A stretch of DNA of 64,000 nt from an uncultured Alphaproteobacteria bacterium (lineage in GTDB: Bacteria > Pseudomonadota > Alphaproteobacteria > Bin65), in the NCBI GenBank assembly GCA_963730305.1, contig CAVSRB010000004.1, forward strand, positions 1 through 64,000, in the 5' to 3' direction. Position 1 is the stretch's first letter, and every line of letters starts with the position of its first letter. The notes under the pieces were generated by a model. It had not been told where the DNA came from. It saw only the letters and a list, made by a program, of their open reading frames with translations, and ran no database searches. Positions 6,829 to 34,861 of this stretch are shown here, one piece after another. The position numbers and the translations under genes were made by a program.

Positions 6829-7566
6829 CTAGATCAAGGTGCCGCCCAGCGACTTGCCGCCGTCGGCGTAGAGCACCTGACCGGTGACGAAGTCGGTGCG
6901 GGCGTCGGTGAAGAAGGCGACCGCCTGGGCGATCTGATCCGGCGCGGCCGGCTTGCCACCCGGCTCCAGCGCCGACCACTTGGCGAAGTCCTCGGCCGGC
7001 ATGGAACGGGTCATCGGCGTGTCGGTGAAGCCGGGCGACACGGCGTTGACCGCGATCTGCCGCTCGCGCAGCTCCAGCGCCATCGCCCGGGTCAGCCCGA
7101 TCACCGCCGCTTTCGACGCGACGTAGTGCGGGAAGCCGACGCCGCCGACCGCCGCGCGCGAGGCGATGAAAACGATCCGGCCGCCCGCGCCCATCCGCTT
7201 GAGCGCTTCCTGGGCGACGATGAAGGACCCGATCAGGTTGACGTCGAGGATCCGGCGGAAATCGTCTTCGGTGACCTCGTCGATCGACTTGAGCCAGCTC
7301 ACCCCCGCCGCACAGACGCAGGCGGCGACCGACGGGTGCGCGGCGAGCGCTCCGGCGATCGCGGCCCGGTCGGTCACGTCGGCGGGGACCGCCTCCGCGG
7401 ACAGGCCTTCGCCAGCGAGGTCTTCGGCGACGCCGCGGACGGCCTCTTCCTGACGGTCGATCGCGAGGACATGAAAGCCGTCTCGGGCGAGGCGCCGGAC
7501 CACGGCGCGCCCGATGCCCTGACCACCGCCGGTCACGATCGCAACGCGCGCGGCGTCGGCGGACAC
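6829..7566 (-). CDS. SDR family NAD(P)-dependent oxidoreductase, 245 aa
   Basis: TGGGQGIGRA Rossmann motif, YxxxK (YVASKAA) catalytic motif. Confidence 0.85.
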   Translation of the reverse strand: MSADAARVAIVTGGGQGIGRAVVRRLARDGFHVLAIDRQEEAVRGVAEDLAGEGLSAEAVPADVTDRAAIAGALAAHPSVAACVCAAGVSWLKSIDEVTEDDFRRILDVNLIGSFIVAQEALKRMGAGGRIVFIASRAAVGGVGFPHYVASKAAVIGLTRAMALELRERQIAVNAVSPGFTDTPMTRSMPAEDFAKWSALEPGGKPAAPDQIAQAVAFFTDARTDFVTGQVLYADGGKSLGGTLI

Positions 7567-12818: not shown

Positions 12819-14451
12819 TCAGGTTTCCCAGGGCCCGGGCTTGGGTGCATCCGACCGAGGAGCACCCGACTGGGACGCACTCGCCTCGGGCGGTTCCGGA
12901 GCCGCGGCCTCGGACTTAACAGTCTCGGACTTGGCAGTCTCGGATTTGGCATTCCCAGGACTGGCGGGCTGGGACGTGGCGGCGTCGGGTGCCGCCGGCG
13001 CCGACTGCACTGGGTCGGTCCTCGCCGGCCCGGTCTTGGCGGGCGGAGGCGCGCCCTGCGGCGCCGGACCGGCCGCGCCCTGCGGCGCCGGGGCAGGAGA
13101 GCCGGCAGCCCCGTTGGTCTTGCCCGCCACCCACTCCGGCAGCGAGATGCCGTGGCTGTCGAGCACGTCCTTGAGCGGCGGCACGGCCTTGATAGAGGCT
13201 CTGGATGAAGTCGGCGGTCGAGCCGTTGCCGTTGCCCGAATCCCAGACCGTGACCTTGTCGAACTTCAGATCCTTGATCGCGCCCATCTGGGTAGCCAGC
13301 AGCTGCTCGACCTTGTCGGCGACGATGAGCTGGACTGCCTTTTCCGGATCGCCGCCGGCGGCCGCGACGATCGCCTTCAGGCCCGCCGCCGTCTGCTCGA
13401 GGATCGCATTGATGCCGCGGGCCTCGGCTTCCTTGACCGAGTAGATCGCATCGGCCTCGCCGCGGGCGTGCTCGCGCTGCCGCTCGGCGTCGGCCTGGGC
13501 GGCGACGATGGTCTGCTTCTTCTGGGCCTCGGCAGGGACCACCTGCTCGGCGTAGAGACGCGCCTCCTCGCGCGCCGCCCGCGCCTGTTCGGCCTCGCGC
13601 TCGGCGGCGTAGGATTCCTGTTGGGCCTTCGCTTCCGCGACCTGCTTGGCGGCGGTCGCGCGCCGGTCGGCTTCGGCCTGCCGCTCGCTGAAGTCGGCGT
13701 TGGACTGGGCGATCGCCGCCTTCGAGTCGTTTTCGCCCTTGATCGCTTGCGCGTTGGCCTCGGCGATCTGGATGCGCTTGTCGCGGTCGGCCGCGGCCTC
13801 GCCGGTCGCGCCGGACCGGTCGTGCTGGGCGACCTCGACCTTGGCCTCGTTGATCGCCTTGGCCGCCGCCTCCTTGCCGAGCGCGTCGATGTAGCCGGAC
13901 TCGTCGGTGATGTCGCGGACGTTGACGTTGATGAGCTTGAGGCCGACCTTGGCCAGCTCGTCGCCGACGCTCTCGGTCACGTTCTTGATGAACTTGTCGC
14001 GGTCGGCGTTGATCTCCTCGATGTCCATGGTCGCGACGACCACGCGGAGCTGGCCGAAGATGATGTCGCGGGCCAGCTCCTGGATATCGTTGTTCTTCTT
14101 GCCGAGCAGCCGTTCAGCGGCATTCTGCATCACCGCCGGCTCGGTCGAGACGCCGATGGTGAAGCTCGCCGGCACGTTGATGCGGATGTTCTGCTTCGAC
14201 AGCGCGCCCTTCAGGTCGAGCTCGATCCCCATGGGACTGAGGTCGAGCCATTCCGACGCCTGGATGACCGGCCAGACGAAGGCGGCGCCGCCATGGACGC
14301 ACTTCGAGCTCTTGTCCTCGCCGACCTTGCCGTAGATCACCAGGATCTTGTCGGACGGGCAGCGTTTGTACCGGGTCAGCGCCGCGATGAAGAGAAAGGC
14401 AAACGCGATCGCGAAGACCGCGATGATGACGAGTACGACTGCTCCGCCCAT
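12819..14451 (-). pseudogene. Flotillin-like SPFH/band-7 protein (YqiK/FloA-like), interrupted by +1 frameshift at ~13188-13200; C-terminal Pro/Ala-rich tail
   Basis: SPFH domain and coiled-coil EA-rich region in 511-aa ORF; conserved C-terminal PPLKDVLDSHGISLPEWV motif continues in another frame (ORF 12819..13184) right after ...ADFIQSLY. Confidence 0.75.
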
Positions 14452-21352: not shown

Positions 21353-21441
21353 GCCCCTGTGGCGGAATTGGTAGACGCGGCAGACTCAAAATCTGTTGTC
21401 CGGCAACGGACGTGGGAGTTCGAGTCTCCCCGGGGGCACCA
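21353..21441 (+). tRNA. tRNA-Leu (anticodon CAA), 89 nt incl. CCA
   Basis: 7-bp acceptor stem GCCCCUG/CGGGGGC, anticodon loop CUCAAAA, long variable arm, T-loop GGGAGUUCGAGUCUCCC, encoded CCA. Confidence 0.9.
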
Positions 21442-30274: not shown

Positions 30275-31873
30275 CTAGGCCCCGACCGGCCGCCAGGCCG
30301 GGTCGCCCGCCGCCCGCGCCTGGGTCGCGGCGTCGCGCAGCAGGCGGCGCAGGATGTTGCCGTTGCCCGGATTGCGCGGGATCTCCGTGGCGACGAAGTA
30401 GCCCTTGGGCCGCTTGAAGCCGGCGAGCGGCGAGGCCTTGAAATGGGCGTCGAGCACGGCCGGATCGACCGCGCGCTCGCCCTCCGCCGGAACGACGCAG
30501 CCGACCACGATCTGGCCCCAGTGATCGTCGGCCAGGCCGATCACGGCGCAGTCGGCCACGCCGGGCGCGGTGCGCAGCACGTCCTCGATCTCGCCGGGGT
30601 GGATGTTCTCGCCGCCCGACTTGATCATGTCGTCGGCCCGGCCGCACAGGGTGAAGTAGCCGCGCTCGTCCACGGTGATGACGTCGCCGGTGTAGTACCA
30701 GCCGTCGCGGATCTTCTCGGCGGTGGCGTCGGGCCGGTTGAGGTACTCGGTGAACATGGTGTCCGAGTCGGCAGCGATGATCAGCTCGCCCTCGTCGCCC
30801 GGGCCGATCAGGTCGTCCGGCCCGCCGCCCAGCCGGATGAAGCGCGTGCGGGTGTAATAGCCGGGCCGCAGCGCGTGCGGATCGCCGACCGGGTCGGGGT
30901 TGTAGCCCGAGCACATCGTCTCGGTGGTGCCGTAGATGTGGCGGATGGTGGCGTTCTCCCACTGGGTCGCCATGTGGTCGATCAGGTCCTCGGGGATGAT
31001 CGAGCCGCCATAGAGGACGAGCTCGAGCGAGCGCATCTTCTCCGGCGCGTAGGTGGGCGCGTTGACCATGGCGTAGTAGAGGGTCGGCGCGGCGAAGGTG
31101 TAGGTGATCGCGTTCCGCTCGATCGCGTCGACCGCCGCCGCCGGGTCGAAGCTCGACATCATGTAATAGGTGCCGCCGAAGCCAAGCGTGACCAGGAACA
31201 CGCCGTAGAAGCCGATGCAGTGGGCCAGCGGCATGAAGCCGAACGCGCGGGTATGCGGGCCGTGACGCAGGCCGCCCTGGGTCGCCAGCCAGACGATGCG
31301 GTGCTCCGACGAGCGGTGGGGCAGCACGGCGGCCTTGGGCAGCCCGGTCGTGCCCGAGGTGTAGAAGATCATGCACGGGTCTTCCGGGTCGGGCCGCGGC
31401 ACCGGCGGCAGGGTCGCCGGGTCGCCGACGCACTCGGAAAAGTCCGCCCCCGGCAGGGACGCCTCGCCGGGCGGCCCGAGCGCGACGGTGAACAGCGCGT
31501 CCGTGTTGGGCAGCGCGCCGGCGACGGCCTCGGCGACCTCGGGCTGGGCCATCACCACCGCGCCCTTCATGCCGGCCAGCTCGACCAGCTTGGCGACCTC
31601 GGCCGGCTTGAGCCGGGCGTTGATCAGCGCCGGGATCGCGCCGATGCGCTGCAGCGCGAGGATCGCCAGGGCATGCTCCCACACGCTCGGCAGGCAGGTC
31701 GCCACCCGGTCGCCCGCGCCGATCCCGCGCGCCGCGAAGCCGGCGGCGACCCGGTCCATTTCGGCGATCAGTTCGCGGTAGGTCAGGCGCCGGTCGGTGC
31801 GGTCGTCGACCAGCGCCGGATGGTCCGGCGTCCGCTCGGCCTGGTTCCAGACGAGGTCGTACATGGTCTGCAT
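30275..31873 (-). CDS. AMP-dependent synthetase/ligase (acyl-/aryl-CoA ligase class I adenylate-forming enzyme), 532 aa
   Basis: AMP-binding motif YTSGTTGLPKAA, GYGTTE-like IYGTTET, C-terminal ...KSGGENIHPGEIE. Confidence 0.9.
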   Translation of the reverse strand: MQTMYDLVWNQAERTPDHPALVDDRTDRRLTYRELIAEMDRVAAGFAARGIGAGDRVATCLPSVWEHALAILALQRIGAIPALINARLKPAEVAKLVELAGMKGAVVMAQPEVAEAVAGALPNTDALFTVALGPPGEASLPGADFSECVGDPATLPPVPRPDPEDPCMIFYTSGTTGLPKAAVLPHRSSEHRIVWLATQGGLRHGPHTRAFGFMPLAHCIGFYGVFLVTLGFGGTYYMMSSFDPAAAVDAIERNAITYTFAAPTLYYAMVNAPTYAPEKMRSLELVLYGGSIIPEDLIDHMATQWENATIRHIYGTTETMCSGYNPDPVGDPHALRPGYYTRTRFIRLGGGPDDLIGPGDEGELIIAADSDTMFTEYLNRPDATAEKIRDGWYYTGDVITVDERGYFTLCGRADDMIKSGGENIHPGEIEDVLRTAPGVADCAVIGLADDHWGQIVVGCVVPAEGERAVDPAVLDAHFKASPLAGFKRPKGYFVATEIPRNPGNGNILRRLLRDAATQARAAGDPAWRPVGA

Positions 31874-32416
31874 GGTCAGGCGCCTCCCCCCAGCGTGCGC
31901 GATGCTGGCTATCCTAACGGCGCGACAACGGTCGGCGCTATCCCGTTACCGGCAACCGCGCAGCCCGCCGGTGGCATGGCGTTTTCGCGGGCGCCCGATT
32001 CCTTGAGCGTCATGCCCGCGCAGGCGGGCATCCAGGCCGGTGGCGAAACTGGACCCCCGCCTGCGCGAGGGTGACGGGACAAGGAGTGCTGCCAAGCCGG
32101 CAGCGTCGGAAAACGCGCGAAGGTTATCATCGGTTATCTTTGGTTATCTTCTGGCAGTGGTCCCCGGCTCTCCGCCGCGCTTCGGCCAGGGTGGCGGAGA
32201 TTTTGAATGATCCAAAAAAGACTATTCCGCCCCGGCCGTCGAGCCGGGGCCTACCGAGGCCGGCAACCGCATATGGGAATTAATTCAGAAGCTGCAAGAA
32301 AGATCATCGGCTATCAGCACCCGGCCGCGCGCCCCGTCCGGCGCGAGAGCGGCTGGTCGTCGGCACACGGGGCTCGGGGCGCGCGGGGCTCGGCGCGCGG
32401 GGCGCGCCGTTTCCGG

Positions 32417-33781
32417 TCACCACCCGGGCCGGTCCCGCCACCACCAATCCGGCTTGAACCGCTTGCCGTAGCCCAACGCATTGTCCAGCCACAGCGCGAC
32501 CCGGCGCAGCGGACCGCCGGCCAGCTTCTTCCAGGCTCTGAAGTAGACCCGCCCCAGCCAGGTCTCCGGCAGCTTGTTGTAGGGGCACACCCGGATGCAG
32601 ATGCCGCACTCGGTGCCCTGGTTGGCCCAGAAGCCGAAGCATTTCTCGCCGTCGACGTTCCACTTCCGGATGCCGACGAAGTTCGAATCGTTGTGGAAGG
32701 CGCCGTCGGGCGCACCGTGGGGGATCGCCTTGGGCGGGCAGGCGTCGGCGCACTTGCGGCAGAGGTCGCAGAATTCCTTGACGCCGAATTTCTTCGGCTC
32801 GTCGTGGGCGAGCGGCAGGTCGGTGAAGATCTTGCCGAAGCGCAGGCGCGGCCCGTACTCGGGCGTGATGACCAGGCCGTGGCGGCCGTATTCGCCCAGC
32901 CCCGCCTGGATCGCGTAGGGCACGCACTGGGCGGTGTCGTTGAGCGAGGCGACCGCGCGGTAGCCCAGGTTGCGGATGAACTGGGCGATCGACATGAGAC
33001 AGAGGCCATCCTTCGAGTAGCCGAAGCCGGCGGCCACCCCGCCCAGCGCCGAGGGCATGGTCTGGATCACCTTGCCGGGCATCTCGGTGCCGATGACGAT
33101 GCAGTGGGGCAGGTCTTCGCAGTCGGCGTTGTCCTTCTCGGTCATCGTCTTGGCGTTGAACCGCCTGGTGTAGTGCCAGCGCAGGTCCGTGGACGTGATG
33201 CCGATCAGGTCGGCGCCGAAGATCTTGGCCGCCTGCTTGAGCTGGGCCGCCATCTCGGCCGGGTCGTCGACCGGCTCCTTCTCCGGCGCGGGCGGGGCGT
33301 AGGCGGTGAGGTCGTCGAGGAAGCCCTCGTGCCGCTCCTCGTGCAGGCTGCGCTCGATCAGCAGGTTGGCGCCGACCCAGGCGGCGTTGCGGATGGCGAA
33401 GTCGCGCCGGCGGTAACCCTCGGTGTTGCGCACGCCGATGCCGTGCATGAACATCGACTTGAACCAGGCGATCGCCTTGTCCGAGCGCACCCGTTCGTCC
33501 CACTGGGCGCGGGCGAAGGTGTCGTTGCACGCGTTGAAGCGCCGGAAGCCGTCCTCGATCTCGAAGCCGCAGGCCGCGTCGTAGGGCTGGTGCTTGGGCC
33601 CGTGATAGACCTCCTCCGGGGTCGGCGGGTTGTCGACCGAGAGCGGCGTCGGCCGGTTCGGCCGCGTTGTCGCCTGCGCGGCCGCCGGCGCGCCCTTCGG
33701 CGGCCTGGTCTTGCCCGGCCGCGTTGGCGGCGTGCCGACTGCCTGCCGGCCGGATGCTTGTTTGCCGGTACCCTGTGCCAT
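32417..33781 (-). CDS. Reductive-dehalogenase-like (RdhA family) corrinoid/iron-sulfur protein, cytoplasmic type, 454 aa
   Basis: C-terminal CDLCRKCADACP (Cx2Cx2Cx3CP) followed by CFGFWANQGTECGICIRVCP (Cx10Cx2Cx3CP), the RdhA arrangement rather than QueG; no twin-arginine signal; AGGAA RBS. Confidence 0.55.
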   Translation of the reverse strand: MAQGTGKQASGRQAVGTPPTRPGKTRPPKGAPAAAQATTRPNRPTPLSVDNPPTPEEVYHGPKHQPYDAACGFEIEDGFRRFNACNDTFARAQWDERVRSDKAIAWFKSMFMHGIGVRNTEGYRRRDFAIRNAAWVGANLLIERSLHEERHEGFLDDLTAYAPPAPEKEPVDDPAEMAAQLKQAAKIFGADLIGITSTDLRWHYTRRFNAKTMTEKDNADCEDLPHCIVIGTEMPGKVIQTMPSALGGVAAGFGYSKDGLCLMSIAQFIRNLGYRAVASLNDTAQCVPYAIQAGLGEYGRHGLVITPEYGPRLRFGKIFTDLPLAHDEPKKFGVKEFCDLCRKCADACPPKAIPHGAPDGAFHNDSNFVGIRKWNVDGEKCFGFWANQGTECGICIRVCPYNKLPETWLGRVYFRAWKKLAGGPLRRVALWLDNALGYGKRFKPDWWWRDRPGW

Positions 33782-33806
33782 GGCGTTCCTCCCCGAACGC
33801 GGGCCG

Positions 33807-34640
33807 CTACAGGAAGGCGCGGATCTCCCGGATCAGACCGGCCTCGTCCTCGCCGGCGACGTTGTGGCCGGTGTCGAGCTCGACCAGCGTGAGGTTGGCG
33901 TTCTCCGCCTTCATGCGCACGGCGTTCTCTTCGGAGAACATGTCCGACTTCCGGCCGCGGACGACCAGCACCGGGCAGGATATCGAGGCCAGCGTCTCCC
34001 ACAGGTCGACCGGCTGCTTGGGCGCCTCGCCGGTCTCCAGCACCTTCTTGAAGCGGTCGCGGAAGACCGTGTCGCGCTTGATCGCGAAGCCGCCGTCGAC
34101 CGGCCTGAGATAGGCCTCCATCCGGGCGCGCACCGCCGGGTTCGCCTTGTCGTGGCCGTAATAGTCGAGCGCCGCGTCGACCGAGGCGAAGGCGTCCGGC
34201 ACGCCCGCGACCGATCTGGTCACCCGGTCCGAGCCGGCCTTGGCGTTCTTGGGACTCCAGTCGACCAGGATCAGCTTCTCGACCTTGTCGCCGTGGCCGC
34301 TGGTGTAGAAGGTCGTGTTTCGCCCGCCCATCGAGTGGCCGATCAGGATCGCCCGGTCCCAGCCGAAATGGTCGAGCAGCGTGTCGATGTCCCCGGCGAA
34401 GGCCTTGAGCGAATAGTCCTTGTCCGGGCTCCAGGTCGAATCGCCGAAGCCGCGCATGTCCTGCGCCACCACCTCGCGGTCGGTCGCCAGCGCCGACGCC
34501 ACCCCGGCCCAGTCGTAGGAGAAGTAGGACAGGCCGTGGACGATCAGGATCGGCGTCGCCCCCGGCCGGCCGAACTTCCGGTAGTGCAGGGTGACGTCGC
34601 CCGACGGGCAGGTTCCGGTCTCGTGCGCAGGCAGGGTCAT
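33807..34640 (-). CDS. Alpha/beta hydrolase, 277 aa; start MTLPAHETG
   Basis: HGLSYFS oxyanion region, GHSMGG nucleophile elbow; 25 nt upstream of rdhA-like gene; 60-codon N-terminal extension rejected. Confidence 0.8.
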   Translation of the reverse strand: MTLPAHETGTCPSGDVTLHYRKFGRPGATPILIVHGLSYFSYDWAGVASALATDREVVAQDMRGFGDSTWSPDKDYSLKAFAGDIDTLLDHFGWDRAILIGHSMGGRNTTFYTSGHGDKVEKLILVDWSPKNAKAGSDRVTRSVAGVPDAFASVDAALDYYGHDKANPAVRARMEAYLRPVDGGFAIKRDTVFRDRFKKVLETGEAPKQPVDLWETLASISCPVLVVRGRKSDMFSEENAVRMKAENANLTLVELDTGHNVAGEDEAGLIREIRAFL

Positions 34641-34861
34641 CTCGCTTGGTCTCCTTCCCCGGTGGACTGGCGCGGCATCGTCCGTCGCGGGCCGGCGCGC
34701 CGTTTCCCGCCAACCTAGAGCGAAACAGACGGAAAGGGAATCGGTGCGGCCGACGTGACCGCCGTCACTGCGCGCATGGCGGGCCGGTGGCATGGTCCGG
34801 GCATGAAGGGGCCGCACCACGACGGCCCCGCCCAGGACAGGAACAGGAAAGACCCCGAGCC

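Follow-up and report, generated by a model that had tools for sequence, protein, structure and literature searches.

A phased GGTTATC array between an rdhA-like gene and a CoA-ligase gene belongs to a dispersed family of intergenic boxes

What is the role of three perfect repeats, phased one helical turn apart, in the gap between two bacterial genes? A 64-kb stretch of DNA from an uncultured Alphaproteobacteria bacterium (contig CAVSRB010000004.1, positions 1 to 64,000; here called the window, meaning the whole stretch that was analysed) carries the direct repeat GGTTATC-ATC-GGTTATC-TTT-GGTTATC on its plus strand at 32122-32148, with perfect heptamers and a period of 10 bp, between the end of a gene similar to the reductive dehalogenase gene rdhA and the start of a gene for an AMP-binding CoA ligase. 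The first-pass annotation of this locus likened the repeats to binding arrays of OmpR/PhoB-type response regulators or to iterons, and pointed out the DnaA-box core TTATC within the heptamer. We found that the triple array is one copy of a dispersed intergenic box of a narrow high-GC alphaproteobacterial lineage, and that the boxes, not the spacers between them, are held constant by purifying selection. The best overall explanation, which we hold with somewhat better than even confidence, is that this dispersed and selected box family may act as a docking array at the DNA level, with an architectural role.

The heptamer is ordinary in number and exceptional in its clustering, given that GGTTATC or GATAACC occurs exactly three times in the window, compared with a mean of 1.73 in shuffled windows, and that every copy lies inside the array. 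Pairs of the form GGTTATC-N3-GGTTATC, allowing up to two mismatches, were found twice where 0.11 were expected, a count reached in none of 100 shuffles, and the chance expectation for the exact triple array, calculated from the frequency of the single heptamer, is about 3e-10 per window. Tandem Repeats Finder (TRF) describes the array as 3.0 copies of a 10-bp period with 85% matches and a score of 46, just under the usual threshold. Sequence, counts and TRF agree with the first-pass description of three perfect heptamers at a 10-bp period, and their clustering is non-random.

The gap that houses the array (window letters 32121-32151, aGGTTATCatcGGTTATCtttGGTTATCttc) measures 543 bp and is bounded by the rdhA-like stop and the ligase start, which is the intergenic setting originally proposed. 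Both genes lie on the minus strand, so that the array reads as three copies of GATAACC on the coding strand, where it ends 248 nt upstream of the ligase ATG. The G+C content around the array is 0.53-0.65 compared with about 0.7, in keeping with the locally AT-richer patch noted earlier. The window seems to have no other long non-coding stretch, the remaining apparent gaps reading as coding sequence missed by our gene-calling filter on G+C at third codon positions (GC3).

Dispersal and anatomy of the box

We scanned GTDB, with one genome per species, for the exact triple array and considered the best 80 of 81 matching stretches. Among the matches listed, at least 30 sites were on 29 contigs of a single metagenome-assembled genome (MAG), CAMYMQ01, named 'uncultured Alphaproteobacteria bacterium Biocath_Alpha_02', with a G+C content of 0.63-0.71. 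A metagenome scan with the form typical of the family, in which the first spacer is ATC, gave 24 matches, 22 of them from assembly MRWG01, a second related high-GC genome; all 22 were further sites and none was identical to a MAG site. Two related genomes thus hold at least 52 sites besides that of the window, sharing the box AAAA-N5-RAA-GGTTATC-ATC-GGTTATC-NNN-GGTTATC-TTC, which we call the A box. The exact 27-mer of the window recurs elsewhere in these genomes (for example at loci L040, L086, L095, L096 and L103), in several MRWG01 sites followed by TTC. Outside the lineage, the matches listed were plain 10-bp microsatellites (GGTTATCNNN)n with identical spacers, from other phyla. A blastn search of plasmids with the box gave no match, viral contigs scanned for A arrays and for arrays of the companion B box described below gave only unrelated low-GC tandem repeats, and phage records contained no family members. 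The first-pass annotation had not recognised GGTTATC as a described alphaproteobacterial motif, and the literature searched likewise holds no description of these motifs.

Position profiles, built first from 32 copies and later from 54, outline a unit some 50 bp long, G.GGCG-AAAA-N5-RAA-GGTTATC-ATC-GGTTATC-wwh-GGTTATC-(w)TC-cGG, in which the array holds three to five heptamers. The first spacer is most often ATC (19 of 32 copies), and the spacers vary across the family. To the left of the array, adenine reaches a frequency of 0.76-0.88 at positions -11/-10 and of 0.72-0.89 at -2/-1 (in the 32- and 54-copy profiles), and the A/T-rich triplets at -13 to -11 and -3 to -1 share the 10-bp register of the array spacers; further out, positions -45 to -14 are unusually poor in A+T (9-24%). 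To the right, T has a frequency of 0.91 at +2, C or T of 0.97 at +3 and G of 0.59-0.69 at +5/+6. Taken together, the profiles and the shared register indicate that each helical turn consists of seven specific base pairs and three A/T-rich ones, over about five turns. The window copy (32103-32154) agrees with the family consensus at every point: its conserved left flank at 32103-32121 on the plus strand (gcgtcggAAAAcgcgcGAA) corresponds to G.GGCG-AAAA-N5-RAA, and its conserved right flank at 32149-32154 on the same strand, TTC followed by tGG, to wTC-cGG.

The mosaic and its conservation

At the loci of the MAG and of MRWG01, further boxes come after the A box, phased at 10 bp and with units TGTCAKCAT, GTAAGGAAAAGTAAGGG and TGTCAGGTT, to form a mosaic. 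We distinguish the B box (TGTCAKCAT, two to three units and up to eight at locus L083), the C box (GTMAGGAAAAGTAAGGG), the E box (TGTCAGGTT, two to three units) and the D box (tATAGGAATtATTTCA), which is single and A/T-rich; all phased units are variants of KGTNAKS. The B, C and E modules of the 8-kb loci always share the gap and the orientation of an A box, and the mosaic is polar: of 28 mosaics with several modules, 24 have the A box at their left end (p = 2e-4). Between consecutive boxes, the last unit of one and the first of the following lie 42-47 bp apart in 15 of 38 cases, and secondary clusters of distances occur at 34 and at 54-57 bp.

Conserved boxes of about 17-47 bp alternate with unique, GC-rich spacers of about 37 bp. 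When the boxes were masked, an all-versus-all blastn comparison found in common only palindromic elements of the REP type, the D box, one match to an 18-nt palindrome and the gene start of L082 and L083; because the masked copies share so little, the spacers must be unrelated between copies. Compared with shuffled sequences, the spacers fold with mean z scores of 0.1 and -0.2 on the two strands, with no excess of structure.

Three further observations concern individual boxes and mosaics. At positions 300-420 of L083, five of the eight units of the B box are identical (gctgacgaat), which indicates that boxes can grow by recent slippage, unlike the A box of the window. The mosaics of L040 (about 7222-7327) and L080 also contain another REP-like element, some 107 nt long (gtcattccgagcgaagccgaggaacc...cgaaatgacg), the two copies being 82% identical. 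Positions 13328-13597 of a viral contig of 28% GC (L116, IMGVR_UViG_3300027801_001983) hold several (TGTCATCATT)n arrays, which resemble the B box by convergence and are probably phage iterons, unrelated to the box family.

The closest homologues of the ligase are 85%, 84%, 74% and 70% identical at the protein level. The loci of the two closest orthologues, L082 and L083, came from a search by protein in which the motif played no part, and in both the array stands on the side of the gene that it occupies in the window, among other spacers and other companion boxes: the order is B-E-C-C-A-gene in L082 and D-B(x8)-C-A-gene in L083, and in all three orthologous loci the array is the mosaic box closest to the ligase gene. 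Compared with the window, L082 matches at 21 of 21 heptamer positions and at 20 of 60 flanking positions, and L083 at 20 of 21 and 36 of 60. The check on orthologous loci that the first-pass annotation had proposed was thus passed in close relatives. In the 74% and 70% orthologues (L084 and L085), the synteny of the rdhA-like and ligase genes is kept with gaps of about 100 and about 70 bp, and the array is absent.

Six array sites are orthologous between CAMYMQ01 and MRWG01, with flanking proteins 82-96% identical. In the pair L034/L105, the B and C boxes, on which no selection of sites had been made, are identical at 36 of 36 positions, compared with 49% in the spacers and 80% at the third codon positions of the flanking genes; the probability of 36 matches in 36 at 0.8 per site is 3e-4. 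Other orthologous pairs have gained or lost whole modules (L017 versus L096) or one array unit (three versus four in L008/L091). Boxes that stay identical while the spacers drift indicate purifying selection on the boxes.

Other elements of the gap and the neighbouring genes

Several further elements share the 543-bp gap with the A box. Between the box and the ligase promoter region lies a REP-type palindrome dimer (32008-32076; CGTCATGCCCGCGCAGGCGGGCATCCAG ... CTGGACCCCCGCCTGCGCGAGGGTGACG), an inverted repeat with 28-nt arms that are 82% complementary. It belongs to a separate repeat family, shares about 85% identity with the REPs found at L072 and L032 in the MAG, and stands at a similar distance from the A box in L032 and in the window (about 41-45 bp); it is missing from that position in L082 and L083. 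Closest to the ligase, on the minus strand at 31884-31916, a block conserved with the two orthologues contains TTAGGATAG (-10-like) and GGGGGGAGG (Shine-Dalgarno), followed by the ligase ATG. To the right of the A box, the spacer contains a GC-rich hairpin at 32169-32200 (TCTCCGCCGCGCT / AGGGTGGCGGAGA), followed by TTTT on the plus strand; the fold of this spacer has an energy of -24.1 kcal/mol and a z score of -0.6, and is therefore unexceptional for its composition. An A/T-rich patch at 32199-32228, reading GGAATAGTCttttttggATCATTCAAAAtc on the minus strand, may possibly be a reversed D-type box (compare GGGAATAtAGTCATTCAAA in L007), judging from a weak likeness seen by eye. A D-like A/T-rich box occupies 32270-32291 on the plus strand (catatGGGAATTAATTCAgaag), where 32273-32287 matches the family consensus tATAGGAATtATTTCA with two substitutions, and comparable boxes occupy the far end of mosaics in the MAG and MRWG01 loci. 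Beyond it, a degenerate partial A box at 32303-32315 on the plus strand (ATCATCGGCTATC) is a direct repeat, 92% identical to ATCATCGGTTATC at 32126-32138. A simple consensus scan of the gap gave no promoter or terminator. Rfam searches of the whole window at the gathering threshold and of the gap at an E-value threshold returned a tRNA elsewhere and otherwise only sub-threshold matches, four of the six in the gap falling on the REP palindrome, including CRISPR-DR28. The tRNA, tRNA-Leu(CAA) at 21353-21441, is the sole Rfam or ARAGORN match in the window.

The ligase gene (30275-31873, minus strand) encodes an AMP-binding acyl/aryl-CoA ligase (PF00501, 1.5e-67; PF13193, 2.3e-13), whose homologues carry the source names 2-furoate-CoA ligase or acyl-CoA synthetase. 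The product of the rdhA-like gene (32417-33781, minus strand), whose stop faces the mosaic, matches PF13484, PF12838 and PF13486, that is, a Fer4 or 4Fe-4S dicluster domain with the C-terminal part of the reductive dehalogenase domain. An alpha/beta-hydrolase gene, the rdhA-like iron-sulphur protein gene and the CoA-ligase gene form a cluster (window 32417-34820; L084 1371-5186; L085 7451-11331) that is conserved in relatives with a ligase 70-74% identical, which hints at a module for the catabolism of a halogenated or aromatic acid. Directly after the rdhA-like stop, at 32360-32406, a very G+C-rich tandem repeat of 7/14 bp (CGGGGCG; TCGGCGCGCGGGGC x3) with overlapping palindromes may be the terminator region of that gene.

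Judged by the GC3 gene calls, all but one of the 30 MAG arrays are intergenic, as is that of the window. The flanking genes are arranged in tandem in 19 cases, convergently in 11 and divergently in 4, a mix that did not differ significantly from that of other gaps in the same loci (p = 0.17), and the array of the window shows the commonest gene arrangement. GC skew at the arrays revealed no replication polarity (17 positive versus 13 negative). Inspection by eye of the genes near the copies, which look ordinary, found no protein gene that accompanies the arrays. The 83 neighbouring proteins fall into 129 Pfam families, of which the commonest are glutathione S-transferase (GST; 6) and AMP-binding (3); the apparent enrichment of GST comes down to roughly four independent loci, with the genes on mixed sides. 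Near the arrays a single mobile-element gene was seen, an open reading frame (ORF) for an IS1595/ISXO2-like transposase with a CPHCG zinc-ribbon motif, recognised by eye in translation, about 2.1-3.1 kb to the right of the array in L008. To the left of the array in L034, and also in L105 and L107, a plausible Caulobacter-type promoter TTGAGG-N16-CTACAA with GCTACAAC lies about 30-55 nt beyond the A box; in these few loci it would put the conserved T-tracts adjacent to the box roughly at the position of an UP element.

Possible functions of the box and comparable known systems

In the explanation that we favour, the box acts at the DNA level as a docking array for a sequence-specific DNA-binding protein. 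At least three copies of this protein would line up head-to-tail along one face of the helix, each in the next major groove, and the A/T-rich triplets would supply minor grooves that are narrow or bend easily; with the companion boxes added, the result would be a phased nucleoprotein segment some 150-300 bp long where genes meet. Its role, more speculatively, would be architectural, such as insulating transcription units or handling read-through or supercoiling, and would involve no switching of the adjacent CoA-ligase gene. Recognition of DNA is suggested by the 7+3-bp unit with its 10-bp period, the in-register triplets, the phasing between boxes, the lack of RNA structure and the presence of both orientations.

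The obvious alternative is a gene-specific operator, in which an OmpR/PhoB-type response regulator or similar activator bound to the three repeats would control the CoA-ligase promoter. The array does lie on the promoter side of the ligase gene, as the nearest mosaic box in the three orthologous loci, its 7+3-bp unit with an A/T-rich spacer resembles winged-helix sites, and a gene start stands on the ligase-equivalent side in 30 of 46 arrays. In the other 16, however, that side faces a gene end, the array starting 11-51 bp past the stop, and the at least 52 other sites adjoin unrelated genes. In a three-way alignment of the window, L082 and L083, the invariant parts are the heptamers and the block TTAG(G/A)AT...GGGGGAGG...ATG, probably a -10 region and a Shine-Dalgarno sequence, and these are separated by 52, 68 and about 205 nt in the three loci; the distances are unequal because the window carries a REP-containing insertion of about 140 bp there, which is tolerated between array and block. 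Nor does a -10-like element recur at a fixed distance in the 32 loci where that side faces a gene start, and the more distant orthologues keep rdhA-ligase synteny without the array. Given the variable distance, the dispersal and the diversity of neighbours, we reject a dedicated operator, which we consider decidedly unlikely, and the array should not be read as an operator of the adjacent dehalogenase and CoA-ligase catabolic genes. The part of the first-pass proposal that stands is therefore the phased 7+3 anatomy, like that of a multimeric protein site; what falls away is the dedicated site at the ligase promoter, along with the fixed promoter position and the coherent regulon of an OmpR/PhoB operator. 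The structural idea was a reasonable one, since arrays of winged-helix, MraZ-type and ribbon-helix-helix (RHH)-type proteins work in this manner.

A family that is high in copy number, lineage-restricted and intergenic also calls to mind REP elements and miniature inverted-repeat transposable elements (MITEs), and the boxes could be selfish or relict mobile DNA, either ends bound by a transposase or recombinase or fragments of a MITE-like kind, spreading on their own and without host function. Modules are indeed gained and lost between orthologous sites (L017 versus L096; three versus four units in L008/L091), REP elements occupy the same gaps, and one IS1595-like ORF lies 2 kb from one copy. 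Nevertheless, the copies have neither terminal inverted repeats nor conserved internal sequence and share little besides the boxes, there is no conserved neighbouring gene, the sites are positionally stable across genomes, and viral, phage and plasmid sequences yielded no copies; boxes that remain identical amid decaying DNA require selection and not recent copying, and we regard this origin as rather unlikely. MITE or transposon ends were set aside on the masked blastn comparison and the lack of a conserved adjacent ORF. Quite unlikely, too, is an element acting in RNA, as a 5' or 3' untranslated-region motif for an RNA-binding protein or as a small-RNA family, mostly read as GAUAACC. The boxes sit in unstructured sequence, the mosaic usually begins just past a gene 3' end, and adjacent genes show an orientation bias that distant genes do not (see below); yet about one third of the copies are oppositely oriented, no Rfam match, promoter or terminator was found (the latter two by simple scan), and the 10-bp phasing, the in-register A/T triplets and the inter-module phasing of about 10.5 bp fit B-DNA and not single-stranded RNA. 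A replication site, whether a set of plasmid-style iterons or a weak DnaA-box cluster, would account for direct phased repeats containing TTATC, the first five bases of a DnaA box, and is very improbable. The 9-mers TTATCATCG, TTATCTTTG and TTATCTTCT match TTATCCACA at 6, 5 and 6 of 9 positions, where a DnaA box would match at seven or more, and the mismatched positions 8-10 vary across the family, so the core noted in the first-pass annotation is coincidental. The iteron proposal fared no better: a rep gene or origin context is lacking, the units are of 10 bp and not the 17-22-bp repeats that plasmid and phage iterons form beside a rep gene, an A/T-rich unwinding element and DnaA boxes, they are dispersed on at least 29 contigs at dozens of copies per genome, and plasmids, phages and GC-skew polarity give no support. 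The probability of a chance or slippage microsatellite without meaning is close to negligible. (GGTTATCNNN)n microsatellites do occur in unrelated genomes and the TRF score falls just below the usual threshold, but about 3e-10 triple arrays are expected per window, the array is kept at orthologous sites with changed spacers, and its flank consensus is common to more than 50 other copies. The two array spacers, ATC and TTT, differ from each other, so that the array is not a product of recent slippage, and as spacers also vary across the family, it does not consist of the identical whole units of a microsatellite or variable-number tandem repeat. A CRISPR array was also considered and set aside, as the boxes differ mutually and the spacers are diverging orthologous DNA; most of 35 collected spacers were compared with 50,697 phage records, and none of those compared gave a match. 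Overall, mobile relics, RNA motifs and a gene-specific operator are less well supported than a docking array at the DNA level.

Some of our results nevertheless tell against the docking array. Of 87 flanking genes, 59 run antiparallel to GGTTATC (p = 0.001), and the tandem pairs divide 15:4 (p = 0.02), whereas more distant genes are unbiased (42 (+,+) versus 47 (-,-) other tandem pairs, both sets combined). This bias is the chief fact that the model leaves unexplained, and it could equally mean an RNA-level or transcription-coupled role. Outside the arrays, which hold about 170 heptamers as estimated from their number and length, four lone heptamers occur in 337 kb where about seven are expected; lone heptamers are thus not avoided, and stray sites show no sign of harm. 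The Rayleigh statistic on unit-to-unit gaps is best at 10.5-10.75 bp (p about 0.001), which is only suggestive because a tight unimodal distribution of gaps contributes to the signal. The identity of the A boxes in the six pairs of MAG and MRWG01 sites is ascertained, as both members were retrieved by motif, and the gene calls came from a crude filter. The binding of a protein, finally, is inferred solely from anatomy.

A bolder version of the docking array, which we offer as a tentative and rather unlikely extension, is that the KGTNAKS boxes A, B, C and E together with the D box would be docking sites for related, lineage-specific proteins, forming a polar boundary or insulator complex of about 150-300 bp with GGTTATC at its nucleating end. 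If true, bacteria would here possess a kind of boundary or insulator element not described before. The reach of the findings is limited by a lineage that is uncultured, narrowly distributed and sparsely sampled. Interspersed intergenic repeats such as REP/BIME, RIME, BOX and STAR are common, and several are without known function; what is unusual here is that the repeats are helically phased direct repeats and not hairpins, with fixed polarity and preferred spacing amid drifting DNA, and under purifying selection. This combination of features predicts a specific protein partner and would make the family a clean system for the study of gene-boundary function.

The REP/BIME elements of enterobacteria and the RIME elements of rhizobia are short intergenic boxes, present in tens to hundreds of copies, that favour gene ends, form mosaics and are lineage-specific; some of them bind architectural proteins (IHF, gyrase), and each unit is an imperfect palindrome functioning as a hairpin. 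The present family is likewise dispersed, intergenic, mosaic and lineage-specific, and a genuine REP dimer lies in the same gap, but boxes A, B, C and E consist of direct repeats of 10-bp period that are not palindromic, with no excess folding, and are parted by unique spacers of about 37 bp instead of abutting, with fixed polarity. Pneumococcal BOX elements (boxA-boxB(n)-boxC) consist of contiguous modules of 45-59 bp that are conserved throughout and predicted to fold. They are similarly modular and polar, with a variable number of internal modules (compare the two to eight units of the B box); here, in contrast, conservation is confined to the boxes, each about 17-47 bp long, and the intervening DNA is unrelated. 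In MraZ and RHH/ParR-type arrays, an oligomeric protein tracking the helix binds three or more short direct repeats of about 10-bp period, although each replicon has only one or a few such arrays, at a defined promoter or centromere, and the present boxes lie at dozens of gene boundaries. The architecture of Pho boxes and OmpR sites is also close, as both they and the A box have head-to-tail units, about one per turn, of some 7 bp plus 3-4 A/T-rich bp, and the core resembles TGTNA-type half-sites, the B box (TGTCAT) being almost a Pho-box heptamer. The period, however, is 10 bp here and 11 bp there, with three to eight units in place of pairs, and the present sites lie also at gene ends, with no regulon coherence and no fixed distance to a promoter.

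The nearest parallel in layout, with no similarity of sequence, may be drawn with the STAR elements of Staphylococcus aureus, in which 14-bp direct repeats are separated by spacers of at least 40 bp at 32-39 intergenic loci, with positions and sequences that are stable within lineages and a function that is unknown (PMC3532100). The box family resembles them in its modal gap of 42-47 bp, in the number of its loci (at least 30 and 22 in the two genomes) and in the six sites shared between genomes, and both contrast in composition with the genome around them. STAR elements, however, are built on one GC-rich motif in an AT-rich genome, whereas the present mosaics combine several A/T-rich boxes in a GC-rich genome, each box being itself a 10-bp-phased heptamer array and the boxes standing in a preferred order.

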